Source: Flavobacteriales bacterium
GTDB lineage: Bacteria; Bacteroidota; Bacteroidia; Flavobacteriales; Flavobacteriaceae
Assembly: GCA_038241955.1 (NCBI GenBank)
Contig: JBBSSR010000008.1
Coordinates: forward strand, 55,655-119,654
DNA: 64,000 bases
Reading direction: 5' to 3'
Below the pieces are notes generated by a model. That model had not been told where the DNA came from and did not search any database. It saw only the letters and a program-made list of their open reading frames with translations. Numbering within the stretch: the stretch's first letter is position 1; each line of letters opens with the position of its first letter. This document shows positions 8,522-19,937 of the stretch, in pieces. The position numbers were made by a program, and so were the translations under genes.

Positions 8522-9031
8522 CTACCAACCTACATACTTTGGCGGTTGAATTTGACACAAGTTTAAATAAACAATAAGTTGACCGCGATGATGCGTAACG
8601 TGGTCTTGCATTAAATTAAGGATTTGTAACTTTGATTTTGGACCAGCAAAAAAATCAACTTTTTCAGATAAATTTATATCTTTATTTTCAATAATTTTTG
8701 ATTTTGCACTATCAAATGATAAACTTATTTGTTCGATAATTTCTTTTTTAGTTTTAACTGTAGCAAAATCATTTTTTTTGTATTTCTCTTTTGAAAAGTA
8801 AGTCGTACTCAACCAATCCATATTTTGTAGAATATGAAAAACTTGTTCTTTGAAACTCATTTCTCTTTCGCTAGGTTTAAAATCGTATTTATCTTCTGGC
8901 ATTGCTTCTGCCATTTGAACTAAATATGTTTTTGAATTGTGCCATTTTTCAACAAAAGTATCGACAACTAAATGCTGTGCGAAAATGGAATTAGAACCTA
9001 AAATTAAGGCAAGAATTATAATATTTTTCAT
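8522..9031 (-). CDS. DinB/YfiT family protein with signal peptide
   Basis: MPEDKYDFKP, EQVFHI, C-terminal DHVTHHRGQLIVYL metal-binding motif. Confidence 0.82.
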   Translation of the reverse strand: MKNIIILALILGSNSIFAQHLVVDTFVEKWHNSKTYLVQMAEAMPEDKYDFKPSEREMSFKEQVFHILQNMDWLSTTYFSKEKYKKNDFATVKTKKEIIEQISLSFDSAKSKIIENKDINLSEKVDFFAGPKSKLQILNLMQDHVTHHRGQLIVYLNLCQIQPPKYVGW

Positions 9032-9054
9032 AATTATTTTAAATTTAAAAAAAC

Positions 9055-9087
9055 AAAAAAGCCTTTTGTTATAGTCACAAAAGGCTT
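9055..9087 (-). terminator. Rho-independent terminator after doxX
   Basis: aagccttttgt-N7-acaaaaggctt stem with a U-tract on the minus strand. Confidence 0.65.
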
Positions 9088-9117
9088 GTAAATTTATGTT
9101 TTTATTTTTAATTGAGC

Positions 9118-9320
9118 TCGATTATTAAAAAATGTCGCTCCTAAGGAGCTTGGTAGCTATTACTATTCCTAATTTCTATAAAGATTGCACTCTTATGGAG
9201 CTTAAAAAATTTAGTTACTATTAACTAGAGCCACAAAGTGGCACTATATTTATAGCAATTGGCAAAAGTTAATGATATCACGAGCTCATTAGGAGCGAAA
9301 TATAAAAATACAATAATCGA
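9118..9320. repeat. Gene-less REP cluster (REPIN/BIME-like), 2 forward + 2 inverted copies
   Basis: Copies at 9129-9150, 9174-9202 (+) and 9228-9258, 9282-9310 (-) of the consensus TTCTATAAATATTACGCTCCTCTGGAGCT, which also flanks tnpA; outer tcgattatt/aataatcga inverted ends. Confidence 0.75.
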
Positions 9321-9331
9321 ATTGAGATTTA

Positions 9332-9724
9332 TTAGATAATATTTCTATCCTCTTTATTTTGTAAAGTTAAACCCAGTAAAGTGGTCAATAATGCAACGTG
9401 AATCATTATATTCATCCAGTTTCCAGAAGGAACATGAACTAAAAATAAAGCCACTGCAATTATTCCTGTTAGTGCAGCATACGCATAGAATAATTTTTTA
9501 TTAGCGAACAATAATATACCTGCAGCCAATTCAATAAGTGCTACAATTGCACCCAAAACATAAGTTCCGTTATCACCTAAAAATCCTAATCCGCTAGATT
9601 TTAAGAATTCGGACATATTGTGTAGACCAACACCTCCCATAAAGCCTTCAATTAGTTTTTCTAATCCACCCCAAACAAAAAGCAGTCCAAAACCTATTCT
9701 AATAATTGTATTTCCTAGTTTCAT
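9332..9724 (-). CDS. DoxX family membrane protein
   Basis: RIGFGLLFVWGGLEKL; four hydrophobic segments; ELAAGILL. Confidence 0.78.
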   Translation of the reverse strand: MKLGNTIIRIGFGLLFVWGGLEKLIEGFMGGVGLHNMSEFLKSSGLGFLGDNGTYVLGAIVALIELAAGILLFANKKLFYAYAALTGIIAVALFLVHVPSGNWMNIMIHVALLTTLLGLTLQNKEDRNII

Positions 9725-9766
9725 AATTTTATAATTTAATGGTTATTTATTTTTTTAGTTTTATAA

Positions 9767-10300
9767 TTATAGTTCAGGTGCTAACGGAAAATCGATAGCA
9801 AAACCAGTTAAATTATGAATGTAATTACTAATGATTTTATCACCAACAACAATTACCACATCAATCATATTTACTTCTGTGTAACCTGCTGCAAAAAAAG
9901 CATCTTTTGATTCTTGTGTTGCATTTCCTCTGTTTTGTACAACAGAAGCGGTGAATTTTACCAAAGCGTCCAATTTTGCATCGAATGAAGCATTTCCTTT
10001 TCTTAATTCTAAAACTTGCTCGTCTGTGAAGCCATTCATTTTTCCTAAAACAGTATGTGCAGATTGACAATAACGACAACCATTTATTTGGCTAGTCACT
10101 ATGTTAACCACTTCTCTTTCTTTCGCTTTTAGAGTACTTTTTCTGTTTTGTAACGCTAAATAATCAGCTAATGCAGTTTCATTTTTACCATAATAGGCAT
10201 ATAAATTCGGTACGAAACCTAATGATTTTTCAAGGTTGTCAAAAATAGCTTGATTGGTTTGCGAAACTTCATTTCTTGTTGGGACTGAAAAATTTTCCAT
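9767..10300 (-). CDS. Carboxymuconolactone decarboxylase / AhpD-family peroxidase
   Basis: LGFVPNLY; NGCRYCQSAH (CxxCxxxH) motif. Confidence 0.87.
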   Translation of the reverse strand: MENFSVPTRNEVSQTNQAIFDNLEKSLGFVPNLYAYYGKNETALADYLALQNRKSTLKAKEREVVNIVTSQINGCRYCQSAHTVLGKMNGFTDEQVLELRKGNASFDAKLDALVKFTASVVQNRGNATQESKDAFFAAGYTEVNMIDVVIVVGDKIISNYIHNLTGFAIDFPLAPEL

Positions 10301-10446
10301 GTTTAATTGTTTTAATAGTTGCTAAAAATTGTATCTGAAAAGGAACTTAAAATCGTTCTCTTATTTCTTGGTACAAAGGTGTAGCAAAGCAACCTATTAG
10401 AACTATGCAGTTTTTCCTAATATGTAGGTAATTTTTCCCGAAAATG

Positions 10447-11262
10447 TTATTTCTTGTAGTTGGAAGGAGAAACACCTTCTATTTTCTTGAAAAATCGGCT
10501 AAAAGTTTGAATATCTTCAAATCCGATTTCATAAGCTATTTCTTTGACAGACTTATCCGTGTAATAAAGCAATCGTCTTGCTTCTAACACTTTTCTGTCT
10601 TGAATGATTTGTAATGGTGATTTGTTTCCGTACTTTTTAAAAAGGTTGGAAAGCGTTTTTGGACTTTTATTAAGCAAATTGGCATAATCGACCACTTGAT
10701 GCTTCGTTTTGAAATGGTTCTCGACTAAATAATTGTATTCTCTAACAATGTCTAATTGATTTTTATCGAAACTAGTAAGCTCTGTCTCTTCCTTATAAAT
10801 ACGAGTACAGAGAATTAACAAGCGTTTCAACATCATTTGAAGCATTTCATTTTTCAAATCATCACTAGATTCCATTTCGATAGAAAACATTTTCCACAGC
10901 GTTTCAAACTTTTCTAATTCGGTATCAGGAATGGAAATTTTAGGTAAATGCGATGCTCCAAAAAACAAAATCCCTTTACATCCCACTTCGTTATCATGGT
11001 CCGATATGCAATAAAAAGCTCTATTGAATCGAACTAGTTTTACACTTTCAATTTTAAGTACTTCAATGGTGTGAAATTCGGTTAAAAATAGAATATCATT
11101 GGCTTTGAAATGCCTTTCTACACCATCCAATTTAATTATTAATTCGTCTACAGTCCAAATAACGCTCAAACCCTCCGAAATTTTTTCTTTCAGAAGGTGA
11201 CAATTTAACGAACTTACTTCGTCTAATCGTATAAACTCATTTATTTGACCGGTGTAGAGCAT
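10447..11262 (-). CDS. AraC family transcriptional regulator
   Basis: C-terminal double HTH: YANLLNKSPKTLSNLFKK ... KEIAYEIGFEDIQTFSRFFKK. Confidence 0.9.
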   Translation of the reverse strand: MLYTGQINEFIRLDEVSSLNCHLLKEKISEGLSVIWTVDELIIKLDGVERHFKANDILFLTEFHTIEVLKIESVKLVRFNRAFYCISDHDNEVGCKGILFFGASHLPKISIPDTELEKFETLWKMFSIEMESSDDLKNEMLQMMLKRLLILCTRIYKEETELTSFDKNQLDIVREYNYLVENHFKTKHQVVDYANLLNKSPKTLSNLFKKYGNKSPLQIIQDRKVLEARRLLYYTDKSVKEIAYEIGFEDIQTFSRFFKKIEGVSPSNYKK

Positions 11263-11283
11263 GAATTAATTTATATGTTAAAA

Positions 11284-12279
11284 TTATTTCTGCAAAAGTA
11301 TCGCTGCTTCTTTGGCGAAATAAGTTGAAATTAGACTCGCCCCTGCCCTTTTGATGCATATTAATTGCTCCATCATAATTTTGTCATTGTCTAACCAACC
11401 TCTTTCGACGGCAGCCTTAATCATCGCATATTCTCCTGAAACGTGAAAAACAGTAACGGGAACATTGACTGCGTTTCTTACTTCGCGAACGATGTCTAAA
11501 TAAGCAATTCCAGGTTTTACCATTACCATATCAGCACCTTCTTCAACATCCCAAACGGCTTCCTTTATGGCTTCAATACGGTTAGCATAGTCCATTTGGT
11601 AGGCTTTTTTGTCTTCTGGGACTACAACATCTGCATCTCTCGGAGCACTATCTAAAGCATCTCTAAAAGGGCCATAATTTGCTGAAGCATATTTTGCGGC
11701 ATAACTCATAATACCAACATTATGAAAACCTGCAGCATCCAATCCTTGACGCAAACGCAACACACGACCGTCCATCATATCCGAAGGTGCAACAAAATCA
11801 GCACCCGCCTCGGCGTGAGAAACTGCCATTTTTACTAAAGCCGCTACGGTAGAATCGTTTTCGACATCCCCGTTGGCGATGATTCCGTCGTGACCATATA
11901 TCGAATACGGATCTAAAGCCACATCGGGCATGACAATCATATCGGGACAAGCCGTTTTGATAGCACGAATGGCCTGTTGCATCAATCCATTTGGATTCCA
12001 TGCTTCAACACCCGCGTTATCTTTTAAATCTTCACTAATTTTTACATATATATTTACCGCTCGTATTCCTAAAGCATAAATTTCTTTAACTTCTTTTACC
12101 GTTAGATCTATCGAACGACGAAAAATCCCTGGCATTGATGGAATTGCGACATTTACGTTTTCGCCTTCTGCAATAAACATAGGAAACATAAAATCGGTTG
12201 GACTTAATGTGGTTTCACGAACTAAACTTCTAATGGATTCATTGGTGCGTAATCTTCTACCTCGGTGTAATGGGAACAT
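11284..12279 (-). CDS. hemB: Porphobilinogen synthase (delta-aminolevulinate dehydratase), Asp-rich non-zinc type
   Basis: DVALDPYSIYGHDG, APSDMMDGRV, MVKPG, SGEYAMIKAA. Confidence 0.97.
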   Translation of the reverse strand: MFPLHRGRRLRTNESIRSLVRETTLSPTDFMFPMFIAEGENVNVAIPSMPGIFRRSIDLTVKEVKEIYALGIRAVNIYVKISEDLKDNAGVEAWNPNGLMQQAIRAIKTACPDMIVMPDVALDPYSIYGHDGIIANGDVENDSTVAALVKMAVSHAEAGADFVAPSDMMDGRVLRLRQGLDAAGFHNVGIMSYAAKYASANYGPFRDALDSAPRDADVVVPEDKKAYQMDYANRIEAIKEAVWDVEEGADMVMVKPGIAYLDIVREVRNAVNVPVTVFHVSGEYAMIKAAVERGWLDNDKIMMEQLICIKRAGASLISTYFAKEAAILLQK

Positions 12280-12281
12280 AA

Positions 12282-12383
12282 TTATTTATGATTTTAGATT
12301 GCTGATTAACGATTTAAGATTTAAAACAAATTTGTAGTTTCATAAATCTGAAATCATCAATCGTAGTTTATTTATGATTTTAG
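12282..12383. repeat. 16-bp direct repeat enclosing a GATTTTAGATT-type hairpin
   Basis: ttatttatgattttag at 12282-12297 and 12368-12383; internal aatctgaaatcat is the reverse complement (1 mismatch) of atgattttagatt. Confidence 0.6.
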
Positions 12384-12452
12384 CTCCAGAGGAGTGTAAT
12401 ATTTATAGAATAGTTTTGTGAAATTTAAGTTGAGCTCCAGAGGAGCGACATT

Positions 12453-12911
12453 TTATATGTCTTCGAATAGATATTCATTTTTAAAATCAACATTAAACAA
12501 TTTTAAAAAATCTATATATTCTTCTTTGAATGTTTTTGTCTTGTGATGTTCTTCTTGATTCTCAATGTAATTGATAACATTCGTCAATTGCGAATGACTA
12601 TATGAAAACGCTCCGAATCCTGTTTGCCATTCGAATTTGCCATTAATCCATCCTTTTTCATTAATAAATCTAGAGGAATTTGCTTTGATATCTCTAACCA
12701 AATCTGATAATGCTTTATTAGGTTTCAATCCAATTAAAACGTGAACATGATCAGGCATCCCATTTATGGCAATTAATTTTTGGCCTTCATTTATAATAAT
12801 TCCCGTTATATATTTAAATAATTCATCTTTCCAATTATTGGAAATCAAATTTTGCCTGCCTTTGACAGCAAAAACAATTTGAATGTATATTTGAGAATAG
12901 GTATTTGCCAT
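12453..12911 (-). CDS. tnpA: IS200/IS605-family Y1 (HUH) transposase TnpA, RAYT-like
   Basis: HUH motif DHVHVL, WQTGFGAFS, catalytic Tyr in YIENQEEHH; 152 aa. Confidence 0.9.
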   Translation of the reverse strand: MANTYSQIYIQIVFAVKGRQNLISNNWKDELFKYITGIIINEGQKLIAINGMPDHVHVLIGLKPNKALSDLVRDIKANSSRFINEKGWINGKFEWQTGFGAFSYSHSQLTNVINYIENQEEHHKTKTFKEEYIDFLKLFNVDFKNEYLFEDI

Positions 12912-12926
12912 ATTAATATACGTATG

Positions 12927-13101
12927 AATATTACGCTCCTGTGGAGCTCTACTGCTATTACTACTTATTTTCTATAAATATAGCGCTTCTCTGAAGCTCA
13001 AATGAATACGTAAAATTATTTTTCTATAAGTATAACGCCTCTATGAACCTTAAACAAATCAATCGGATTTTCTATTCTATAACTATAGCGCTTCACTTAA
13101 G
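12927..13101 (+). repeat. Tandem array of four REP-like repeats, ~50-53 bp period, different spacers
   Basis: Copies at 12927-12948, 12970-12999, 13022-13050, 13075-13101, increasingly degenerate away from tnpA. Confidence 0.7.
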
Positions 13102-13103
13102 AT

Positions 13104-14006
13104 TTAAATCCAATCAATCGGATTTTCTAATACTTGAATTAATTTCTCTTCTTCACTTCCAGCTTCTGGATGATGGTCGTAAACCCATTGCACATGAGGT
13201 GGTAAAGACATCAAAATACTCTCGATTCTTCCGTTGGTTCTTAAACCGAATAAAGTTCCTTTGTCATGAACTAAATTGAATTCTACATATCGACCACGAC
13301 GTATTTCTTGCCATGTTTTTTGTTGTGGATTATAAGGCAGTTCTTTTCTTCTTTCTACAATAGGAACATAAGCTTCTAGAAAACTATTGCCGACTTCTGA
13401 AACAAAGTTAAACCAATTTTCCATGCTCATCTCTTCTGTTGCTTTGCAATAGTCAAAAAACAAACCACCTATTCCACGAGCTTCAAGGCGATGTGCGTTC
13501 CAGAAATAAGAATCACATTGTTTTTTATATTTTGGATAAAAATCAAAATTGTGCTTGTCGCAAGCGGTTTTGCACGTTTGATGAAAGTGTTTTGCATCTT
13601 CTTCGAACAAATAATAAGGTGTTAAATCTTGTCCGCCACCAAACCACTGTTGGATAACATTCCCGTTATCATCATACATTTCGAAATAGCGCCAATTCGC
13701 ATGTACAGTAGGCACCATCGGACTTTTAGGATGAATAACTAAACTCAATCCGCAAGCAAAAAAATCAGCTTCACCTACACCAAACATTTTTTGCATTGCT
13801 TCAGGTAATTTACCGTGAACAGCCGAGATATTCACTCCGCCTTTTTCAAAAACTTTTCCGTTCTCAATGACGCGCGTTCTTCCGCCACCACCTTCTGGGC
13901 GTTCCCAAAGATCTTCTTTGAATTTGGCTTCGCTATCAACAGCTTCTAATCCTGCGACGATTTGGTCTTGCAGGTTTTGTATGTAGGTGTAAAATTTATT
14001 TTTCAT
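13104..14006 (-). CDS. hemF: Oxygen-dependent coproporphyrinogen III oxidase
   Basis: GGGRTRV, FEKGGVNIS, VPTVHANWRYF, RRGRYVEFNLVHDKGTLFGL. Confidence 0.97.
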   Translation of the reverse strand: MKNKFYTYIQNLQDQIVAGLEAVDSEAKFKEDLWERPEGGGGRTRVIENGKVFEKGGVNISAVHGKLPEAMQKMFGVGEADFFACGLSLVIHPKSPMVPTVHANWRYFEMYDDNGNVIQQWFGGGQDLTPYYLFEEDAKHFHQTCKTACDKHNFDFYPKYKKQCDSYFWNAHRLEARGIGGLFFDYCKATEEMSMENWFNFVSEVGNSFLEAYVPIVERRKELPYNPQQKTWQEIRRGRYVEFNLVHDKGTLFGLRTNGRIESILMSLPPHVQWVYDHHPEAGSEEEKLIQVLENPIDWI

Positions 14007-14015
14007 CTATTTGTG

Positions 14016-14163
14016 TTTATTTCAATTGAAATAAAATGTTTAAAAATGTTTAAAAGTATTTAAAAGTATTTAAAGAAAAGTGGCGGTTTGTGGCGGTTTG
14101 TGGCGGTTTTTATTTATTTAAAGGTGTGTAAAGCGTTTAAACGTATTTAAAAGCGTTTAAACG
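14016..14163. repeat. 20-bp perfect palindrome followed by 10-bp-period tandem repeats
   Basis: tttatttcaattgaaataaa (14016-14035); TAAAA(t/g)... 10-mers 14041-14070; GTGGCGGTTT x3 (14080-14109); aagcgtttaaacg x2 (14131-14143, 14151-14163). Confidence 0.8.
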
Positions 14164-19264: not shown

Positions 19265-19461
19265 TTTTATTTTTTAACCATTAAGAAATTAAGCTTCATT
19301 AAGAGTTATTCTTTTATTAAAAAAATTTTGAGAGCATTCTTATATCCTGTACGACTCCTAATTGTGAAAAATTTATATTTAATCTTGAACCTTTTTATTT
19401 TTTAACCATTAAGAAATTAAGTTTCAGTAAGAGTTATATTAAATTTTACAAATTTCTTAAT
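19265..19461. repeat. 45-bp direct repeat (TTAACCATTAAGAAATTAAG core) upstream of hemC
   Basis: 19265-19309 and 19393-19437 differ at 2 positions; attaagaaatt (19408-19418) pairs with aatttcttaat (19451-19461). Confidence 0.8.
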
Positions 19462-19908: not shown

Positions 19909-19937
19909 CTTAATTTTCTTAATATCTTAATGGTTAA
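19909..19937. repeat. Inverted copy of the TTAACCATTAAG repeat on the other side of the GxxExxY gene
   Basis: cttaatggttaa (19926-19937) is the exact reverse complement of 19402-19413. Confidence 0.75.

Follow-up and report, generated by a model that had tools for sequence, protein, structure and literature searches.

An IS200-Class Y1 Transposase Gene amid Inverted Hairpin Modules in Flavobacterium: A Probable REPtron-Like Cassette

The tnpA Locus and Its Repeat Modules

The stretch of DNA considered here (the window, 64 kb in length) comes from a Flavobacterium genome of 3.84 Mb with 33% G+C. It contains tnpA, an open reading frame of 152 amino acids on the minus strand (12453..12911) that belongs to the Y1 transposases (Pfam Y1_Tnp, 95.5 bits) and is bracketed by inverted arrays of a short hairpin-forming repeat, referred to below as the module. 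In an initial annotation, the locus was taken for a REP-associated tyrosine transposase (RAYT) accompanied by its own family of repetitive extragenic palindromic (REP) sequences. The upstream neighbour of tnpA is hemF, the gene for coproporphyrinogen III oxidase (13104..14006, minus strand; Pfam Coprogen_oxidas, 450 bits; synteny in 21 loci), and the downstream neighbour is hemB, the gene for porphobilinogen synthase (11284..12279, minus strand; Pfam ALAD, 448 bits; synteny in 13 loci). All three genes share one strand. The locus has neither tnpB nor iscB, as first annotated.

Each module is composed of a tail, (C)TATAAATAT, a 3-nt spacer mostly ending in C, a 5-bp stem, a 3-nt loop, the return stem and a T. 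The full tail is 9–10 nt long (CTATAAATAT) and is shortened to AATAT in the gene-proximal copies. The modules were located using R1, a covariance model built from 85 module copies that were all taken from other species to avoid circularity, and the whole window was scanned without filters. The six copies first annotated at tnpA, two on the left and four in the opposite orientation on the right, were all recovered in their places with R1 scores of 14.5–42.7 bits. The consensus that had been quoted for them represents real copies in an idealised form: as a literal 20-mer, it finds only two of the six at up to three mismatches (none being expected by chance). Searching with it was therefore dropped as too strict in favour of R1. 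Besides the six copies at tnpA and four more at 9121–9312, nothing in the 64-kb window scored above 11.8 bits.

The cassette has the order outer module, inner module, tnpA, inner module, outer module, and on both flanks the tail faces the gene and the hairpin points outwards. Abutting the start and stop codons, the inner modules carry a shortened tail, (A)AATAT-GTC; these two gene-proximal copies are without the TTCTATAA part and read (A)AATATGTC or ATATTAC, followed by the hairpin. The outer modules, with the full tail, lie about 20 nt beyond the inner ones. Downstream of the gene, the inner module (12430..12461, minus strand; ATAAAATGTC-GCTCC-TCT-GGAGC-T; R1 23 bits) overlaps with its tail the TAA stop codon of tnpA at 12453–12455, an overlap that had been noticed at the outset, and its position is occupied in all orthologous loci. 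Folded as DNA, as were all the copies, it reaches −7.1 kcal/mol (z −7). The outer downstream module (12379..12411, minus strand; TTCTATAAATAT-TAC-ACTCC-TCT-GGAGC-T; R1 37.5 bits, E 4.8e-5) forms a 4-bp hairpin of −2 kcal/mol. Upstream, the TATGAATAT tail of the inner module (12919..12951, plus strand; TATGAATAT-TAC-GCTCC-TGT-GGAGC-T; R1 21.6 bits) begins 12 nt from the start codon, and the hairpin has −3.8 kcal/mol. The outer upstream module (12969..13001, plus strand; TTCTATAAATAT-AGC-GCTTC-TCT-GAAGC-T) is the top R1 match in the window (42.7 bits, E 4.8e-6); its hairpin forms, and its stem shows a compensatory change relative to the other copies. The four foldable copies thus range from −2 to −7.1 kcal/mol.

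The remaining two copies are decayed. The fifth (13021..13053, plus strand; R1 16.5 bits, E 0.47) has retained the tail and lost the stem (GCCTC/GAACC), and does not fold (0 kcal/mol). The sixth (13074..13106, plus strand; R1 match at 13074–13100, 14.5 bits, E 1.1) abuts the hemF stop codon and hardly folds (−0.2 kcal/mol). The copies are spaced at 50, 52 and 53 nt on the right of tnpA and at 51 nt on the left, and the inverted pairs span the gene. A 17-nt copy of the 3′ coding end of hemF (ATCAATCGGATTTTCTA) was found between the fifth and sixth copies, at 13058–13074, matching 13113–13129. This shows that a module and the adjoining gene end were duplicated in tandem to give the last unit; the right-hand array has therefore grown by tandem duplication of a unit of about 53–55 bp that includes the hemF end. 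An alternative C-terminus of hemF would once have been specified by the inner copy of its 3′ end. A reading of 12927–13129 as a CRISPR-like repeat-spacer array was rejected, as the units are the same modules with decaying stems plus the duplicated hemF end. On the other side of hemF, the gap between its start and a Schlafen/AlbA_2 gene (14020–14160) holds other short tandem repeats, namely GTGGCGGTTT three times and several TTTAAAAGTA/GCGTTTAAAC units.

Gene-Less Modules in This Genome and in Relatives

The repeat is not confined to tnpA. R1 revealed three gene-less module loci elsewhere in the genome, all intergenic (C7:160-640, window 9121–9312 and C9:74600-75000), and dozens of gene-less loci are found in relatives. 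The proposal of a repeat family of its own therefore stands insofar as the modules are dispersed in the genome; the family is small and partly decayed here, with a total of about 16–20 modules at four loci including tnpA. A RAYT is expected to be flanked by an inverted palindromic repeat that is also dispersed in the genome, and this is what was found, at a low copy number.

The gene-less element in the window (9121..9312, no strand assigned) is a four-module palindrome between DoxX-like and DinB-like genes and resembles a REPIN (a doublet of REPs) or a miniature inverted-repeat transposable element (MITE). Its modules are an inner and an outer one on the plus strand (9121–9153 and 9173–9205), followed by an outer and an inner one on the minus strand (9226–9258 and 9280–9312), with R1 scores of 22, 20.8, 29.8 and 12.4 bits. 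The stretch 9110–9322 folds back into one long hairpin (−31.6 kcal/mol, z −5.3). The element is not present at the orthologous DoxX 3′ flank of F. segetis. Stand-alone elements of this kind, of about 150–200 nt and four modules, were found in six genomes of relatives (G025, G001, G012, G068, G033 and G075). They occur in two arrangements: type A has the module order of the tnpA locus minus the gene, and type B, as at 9121–9312, is the inside-out form of type A. In G025, all eight of the gene-less palindromes inspected lie at unrelated intergenic sites. The spacers between the modules of dispersed copies are not conserved, which suggests that most copies are old, and many dispersed copies are close to terminators at gene ends.

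To what extent the stems are maintained can be seen from an exact pattern, TATAAATAT-N3-RYNCC-N3-GGNRY, in which RYNCC/GGNRY makes no demand for complementarity. The pattern has 109 matches in 15 of 81 genomes of the genus, compared with one for the reversed control. Of these matches, 98 are fully paired; after shuffling, the number was 43.6 on average and never above 57. The stems are of at least seven types (GCTCC, GTCCC, ATTCC, ACTCC, ACCCC, ATCCC and GCCCC). The stems of the modules are maintained by compensatory change. Two looser searches were discarded: a scan for ATAT-N3-hairpin with G-U pairs allowed gave 105 matches versus 72 in the reversed control, mostly noise, and was not used for counts, while terminators dominate the matches of a search for TATAAATAT followed by any hairpin.

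Four-module elements have also been amplified in relatives, either beside tnpA or away from it. Tandemly amplified examples, which are mosaics like the bacterial interspersed mosaic elements (BIMEs), were observed in L101 (G056:C87) and in F. hungaricum (L017:2870-3870), with periods of about 205 and about 375 bp. A S-adenosylmethionine (SAM) riboswitch scoring above threshold (61 bits) lies just downstream of one gene-less element of G025 (L095:468-551); it belongs to the neighbouring gene and has no relation to the repeat.

Class of the TnpA Protein

TnpA carries the motifs D54-H55-V-H57 (HUH), W95-Q96, the catalytic Y115 and Q119-x2-H122-H123, so that its tyrosine motif reads YIENQEEHH (Y115-IEN-Q119-EE-H122-H123). 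H55, H57, W95, Q96, Y115, Q119 and H122 do not vary across 45 homologues, and H123 is kept in at least 90% of them. The invariance of the catalytic set of HUH, Y and Q suggests that the cleavage chemistry has been retained.

Two NCBIfam models separate the candidate classes. TnpA passed the IS200 model NF033573 (68.9 bits, cut-off 55) and failed the RAYT model NF047646 (33.7 bits, cut-off 80). The outcome on the two models was the same for four relatives of TnpA, which scored 31–41 bits on NF047646, compared with 179 for the E. coli RayT control. BLASTP of TnpA against E. coli RayT gave an E-value of only 0.086. When the sequences of the PDB were searched with TnpA, the TnpA proteins of ISDra2 and IS608 were found and TnpA_REP was not; the alignment places Y115 at the catalytic tyrosine of ISDra2, a position occupied by F in the Y132F mutant 2xo6. 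An AlphaFold (AF2) model of TnpA, with a mean confidence (pLDDT) of 92.6, has ISDra2 and IS608 TnpA as its top PDB matches, and the structure search listed 29 IS200/IS605 chains before TnpA_REP appeared at rank 30 (E 4.5e-6). The model has an additional C-terminal helix at 128–138.

Class-2 TnpAY1 proteins are defined by the motif Y---NP (Quentin 2018, PMC6006769), which is not present in TnpA. Subclass 1.2 of the same classification has the signature DH[IV]H, WQ and Y---Q--HH, a length of about 148 amino acids and a specific C-terminal extension; its members occur at low copy number with diverged paralogues in Cyanobacteria and Bacteroidetes (PMC6006769). TnpA agrees with this description in motifs, size (152 amino acids), low copy number, diverged paralogues and Bacteroidetes host. 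Judged by its sequence and its modelled fold, TnpA is assigned to the IS200 class, TnpAY1 subclass 1.2 (Y---Q--HH), and not to the class-2 RAYTs. The first annotation as a RAYT-REP system thus holds for the function, i.e., a tyrosine transposase associated with REPs, and fails for the sequence class.

One published trait of the subclass does not agree with the present data. Subclass 1.2 was tabulated without REPs and described without IS-type terminal structures (PMC6006769), whereas modules flank nearly all of about 80 loci examined here. The REP finder used at the time accepted only stems of 7 bp or more with a GTAG/GTGG tag (PMC6006769); by these criteria, such modules could not have been seen. 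The flanking modules therefore correct the published description of subclass 1.2 and are no ground for excluding TnpA from it. In the literature searched, no earlier account was found of REPs that accompany subclass 1.2 or occur in Flavobacterium, nor any later paper connecting this subclass with repeats.

Copy Number, Synteny and Selection

The passing of the IS200 model and the closest solved structures, which are IS200/IS605 TnpAs, would also fit an ordinary insertion sequence (IS) of the IS200 type, that is, a mobile tnpA with subterminal hairpins that landed by chance between hemB and hemF. In addition, close relatives differ by the presence or absence of the entire cassette as a discrete indel: in the F. 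johnsoniae-like clade, 0.9–1.7 kb comprising modules and tnpA are present or absent between the hemF stop codon and the next gene. The initial annotation had argued against such an element, and this is upheld by several lines of evidence that make an ordinary IS200 very improbable.

The first is copy number. By tblastn, the genome has two Y1 genes, i.e., tnpA and a 51%-identical paralogue with unrelated flanks on another contig, so that tnpA is not a multi-copy gene with identical flanks. Flavobacterium genomes carry 0–4 Y1 homologues, and the intragenomic paralogues are 38–70% identical to TnpA, never near-identical. The several near-identical copies and the horizontal spread that characterize IS200/IS605 (subclass 1.1) were not found: among 72,556 plasmid records, only two hold a tnpA homologue, both of them replicons of roughly 600 kb, and none was found in the phage records searched. 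The second is position. Orthologues with 76–91% identity were found between hemF and hemB, or right after hemF, in at least 19 Flavobacterium species, and Salinimicrobium has a 71% homologue at the hemF-hemB site. The identities of the orthologues are comparable to those of the neighbouring genes. The third is selection. In 18 loci, the median ratio of nonsynonymous to synonymous divergence (dN/dS) is 0.067 for tnpA, 0.056 for hemF and 0.046 for hemB, and pairwise dN values of tnpA are correlated with those of the two neighbouring genes (rho 0.61 and 0.64). The fourth is the structure of the ends, which are inverted and hold from two to more than ten modules per side instead of a single same-strand subterminal hairpin per end. 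Thus, tnpA is fixed between hemF and hemB, purifying selection acts on it throughout the genus, and its evolution resembles that of a housekeeping gene. In being single-copy, vertically inherited and housekeeping-like, it behaves as a RAYT does, though its inheritance is patchy.

The empty hemF-hemB sites are of two kinds: a clean gap of 84–102 bp without modules (G033, G020 and G030), or a gap occupied by another gene. In the F. johnsoniae-like clade, empty and occupied alleles have different intergenic DNA, so that excision, deletion, replacement and a site that was never occupied are all indistinguishable. Two of the empty gaps, L083 (G020) and L089 (G030), hold a different palindrome on TTAACCATTAAG / CTTAATGGTT, which may be compared with 19402–19413 and 19926–19937 in the window.

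The paralogue (C17:45100-46509) has, on one side, four or five tandem units with a period of about 229 bp, each of which holds several different hairpins (GAGCC-N3-GGCTC, CTGGACTTTAGTCCAG, CGTTCCTACGGAAC and AACGGATTTTAATCCGTT). It was considered as a second REP system and rejected: the hairpin units form a local tandem array and occur nowhere else in the genome.

Tail Type and Enzyme Clade

All five sampled genomes of the genus with an orthologue of at least 83% identity carry modules, and the same inverted module layout was found at all orthologous loci. A further 60 loci, with homologues of 63–74% identity, were drawn from Bacteroidota and from metagenome-assembled genomes (MAGs) of Ignavibacteriota, Kryptoniota, Acidobacteriota and Verrucomicrobiota. 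In 449 kb of their flanks, R1 matches cluster within about 600 bp of the gene, chiefly on the minus strand upstream and on the plus strand downstream. When the flanks were read directly, the cassette of inner and outer modules was recognized in nearly all of these loci. In the majority of the more distant homologues, at 63–72% identity, the outer tail is CTACAAACAG and the inner one ACAGGTC.

The tail thus differs between two clades of TnpA, being TATAAATAT in one and TACAAACAG in the other, and rarer tails are ACAT, ACCT, TCAG and TAAT. Mapped on the TnpA tree, the two main tail types require one change, compared with about 25 when the labels are shuffled. G047 and F. hungaricum hold both TnpA clades, and each gene is flanked by its own tail type. 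Over about 80 loci, tail type follows TnpA clade, even inside single genomes; the tail sequence co-varies with the enzyme.

The second clade, which is sister to that of the present TnpA and has the CTACAAACAG tail, is also syntenic. In 14 loci from two families, its gene has a fadB-like gene (3-hydroxyacyl-CoA dehydrogenase/enoyl-CoA hydratase) on one side and a thiolase gene on the other; six of these loci are in Chryseobacterium (L043, L056-L058, L062 and L071) and eight in Flavobacterium and a Flavobacteriales MAG (L031, L037, L041, L049, L053, L060, L063 and L065). The second clade is therefore another operon-embedded, long-resident Y1 copy. G011 and G064 have its tail type at dispersed sites away from the gene as well.

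These observations bear on the idea that the repeats have nothing to do with TnpA and are terminators, sites of another protein or MITEs of DDE transposons that gather in the same intergenic gaps. The position of many copies near gene-end terminators is in line with it, as are copies in G033, a genome without a Y1 gene, that carry extra terminal inverted repeats. It is hard to reconcile, however, with the agreement between tail type and TnpA clade within single genomes, with inner modules that abut the start and stop codons in every locus, with the concentration of model matches close to the gene and with the lack of modules at empty hemF-hemB sites. Such a chance association is regarded as scarcely credible.

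Comparison with Known Systems

The nearest described group is TnpAY1 subclass 1.2 (Quentin, Siguier, Chandler & Fichant 2018, BMC Genomics 19:475, PMC6006769), with which TnpA shares the signature, the low copy number, the Bacteroidetes host and the lack of IS properties. The difference is that here, and at the roughly 80 related loci, cognate hairpin modules lie on both sides of the gene and are dispersed as well. TnpAY1 subclass 2.6 (Bertels RAYT group 5) likewise has Bacteroidota hosts, atypical flanking structures and copies of these elsewhere in the genome, but its proteins have about 179 amino acids with NH[LIV]H and YIH[QN]NP, in contrast to 152 amino acids with DHVH and YIENQEEHH in TnpA. 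According to Quentin 2018 (PMC6006769), the RAYT groups of Bertels do not cover the IS200 class.

The E. coli REPtron of RayT/TnpA_REP (yafM) is similar in its single-copy Y1/HUH gene, its inverted flanking hairpin repeats, the conserved 5′ tag of a repeat that is dispersed in the genome, and its protein fold (PDB 4ER8). It differs in protein class, the tyrosine motif being YIENQEEHH here and not Y---NP, and in copy number, which is few to tens per genome here and hundreds there. The repeats differ as well. The tag found here is an AT-rich tail of 9–10 nt placed 3 nt from a 5-bp stem, whereas that of E. coli is GTAG at the foot of a 12–15-bp stem; with its CTATAAATAT tail, the module does not conform to a canonical REP, in which a GTAG/CGTC tag sits at the base of a stem of 7 bp or more. 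The E. coli REPtron and its flanking REP/BIME sequences were reportedly described by Nunvar in 2010 and by Ton-Hoang and by Messing in 2012. The REPIN-RAYT systems of Pseudomonas, said to have been treated by Bertels and Rainey in 2011, by Bertels and co-workers in 2017 and in a bioRxiv preprint of 2021, also combine a single-copy, vertically inherited transposase with non-autonomous palindromic doublets that fold back, and their repeat populations persist after loss of the gene. The units found here are different in that they consist of four modules, with an inner and an outer one per arm, in two arrangements.

The IS200/IS605 elements (IS608 and ISDra2; PDB 2VJV and 2XM3) provide the closest sequences and folds and share the HUH + Y core. 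Their own recognition is of a small hairpin and a nearby tetra- or pentanucleotide on single-stranded DNA. They are multi-copy and horizontally mobile with one same-strand hairpin per end, whereas tnpA is single-copy and syntenic with inverted, multiple ends.

A distant resemblance was also found to an RNA family. The 3′ half of Rfam RF01687 (Acido-Lenti-1) consists of CUAauuUAUgcC, a 5-bp stem, a 3-nt loop, the 5-bp return stem and U, which is the architecture of the module. Weak matches to RF01687 (22.9–25.3 bits, gathering threshold 37) fall on modules in G025 and beside a Verrucomicrobiota homologue; in the window, 8900–13300 gave no match at E up to 1. Acido-Lenti-1 was published as a candidate small RNA of Acidobacteria and Lentisphaerae (Weinberg et al. 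2010, PMC2864571), and it is still a family of unknown function in a 2026 preprint. An identity of the modules with an RNA family was rejected, as no Rfam family reaches its threshold and matches to microRNA precursors are generic artefacts of long hairpins.

Interpretation and Proposed Mechanism

Taken together, the locus is probably a REPtron-like cassette, in which a single-copy, long-resident ("domesticated") IS200-class Y1/HUH gene lies amid its own recognition modules, arranged as a palindromic set. In terms of function, the REPtron-like reading is supported, with an enzyme that by sequence belongs to subclass 1.2 of the IS200 class. Binding and cleavage of the modules by TnpA are inferred by analogy. 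As in IS608, ISDra2 and TnpA_REP, TnpA would recognize tail and hairpin on single-stranded DNA, e.g., on the lagging-strand template, and, as in these same systems, would cut and rejoin it via Y115 and a metal bound by the HUH motif. Since the sides of the cassette are inverted, the recognized form is on opposite strands on the two sides, and owing to the inverted arms of a gene-less palindrome, both of its strands look alike. Acting in trans, TnpA would maintain the gene-less modules, duplicate them or move them, while its own copy would be immobile.

Several observations weigh against this reading. The modules in this genome are few (about 16–20 at four loci), and two of the six at tnpA are decayed; with such a small and partly decayed family, current activity in this genome is doubtful. 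The isolated hairpins are for the most part only marginally stable (−2 to −3.8 kcal/mol). The tnpA orthologue is patchy, being present in five of 81 sampled species of the genus, and occupied and empty species are mixed on the hemF tree, on which seven changes are needed; tnpA is therefore dispensable. As dS is near saturation (about 1.45), the dN/dS figures are rough. Moreover, G001, G033 and G075 have many modules and no orthologue: G033 and G075 are without any Y1 match, and G001 has only a partial 43% homologue. In G033, three elements (L108, L109 and L110) have an identity of about 93% across roughly 250 bp, and further terminal inverted repeats (GCGAATCAAGGGTTGAA...TTCAACCCTTGATTAGC) are common to them. 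Copies with such ends could be moved by another enzyme there, and L108-L110 may be a composite MITE of this kind. The modules can outlive the gene or travel with other elements.

Some of the same facts would suit a co-opted protein that binds or nicks DNA for a host function, for example in replication-fork processes or at the operon level in the hem and fad operons. The modules would then be operators or regulatory or structural sites that are not mobilized, and the gene-less copies would be old relics or would have been spread by tandem duplication, recombination or other transposases. Both clades do lie within metabolic operons (hemF-tnpA-hemB and fadB-like-tnpA-thiolase), arrays beside the gene expand by tandem duplication, the unconserved spacers point to old copies, and modules persist without any Y1 gene. 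However, the complete and invariant catalytic set suggests that cleavage chemistry was kept, and local duplication alone is insufficient to account for palindromes at many unrelated sites in genomes that carry the gene, such as the eight in G025. Co-option is thus considered unlikely, though less so than either an ordinary IS200 or a chance association of the repeats with tnpA.

The REPtron-like cassette may be one instance of a wider system, a proposal that is made tentatively and for which the case falls a little short of balanced. Here, subclass 1.2 as a whole would supply the enzymes of a second system of the REP/REPIN type, one that arose from the IS200 class and extends over Bacteroidota and neighbouring phyla, with the four-module mini-hairpin palindrome as its substrate. 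The tail (ATAT, ACAG, ACAT, ACCT and others) would be a lineage-specific recognition or guide code that co-evolves with the protein, the copies in operons (hemF-hemB and fadB-fadA) would have been in place since before the families of Flavobacteriales split, and Acido-Lenti-1 would be a DNA module of the same kind in other phyla.

Implications

The textbook example of a transposase that has settled as a long-term resident, with non-autonomous repeats of its own, is provided by the REP/RAYT systems. Up to now, these have been associated with class-2 enzymes, and most work on them has been done in Proteobacteria. The tnpA locus presents the REP/RAYT lifestyle within the IS200 class itself, and its recognition module is much smaller and of a very different kind; this points to either a second independent domestication or an older origin of the REP association. 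The two tail types and two enzyme clades, sometimes within one genome, are natural specificity variants with which a Y1 recognition code becomes testable. With this system, the published account of subclass 1.2 would be corrected, and an orphan but abundant Rfam family may be explained. Genes of this kind are now annotated as "IS200/IS605 family transposase" and counted as mobile elements, which, at the loci described here, they are not.

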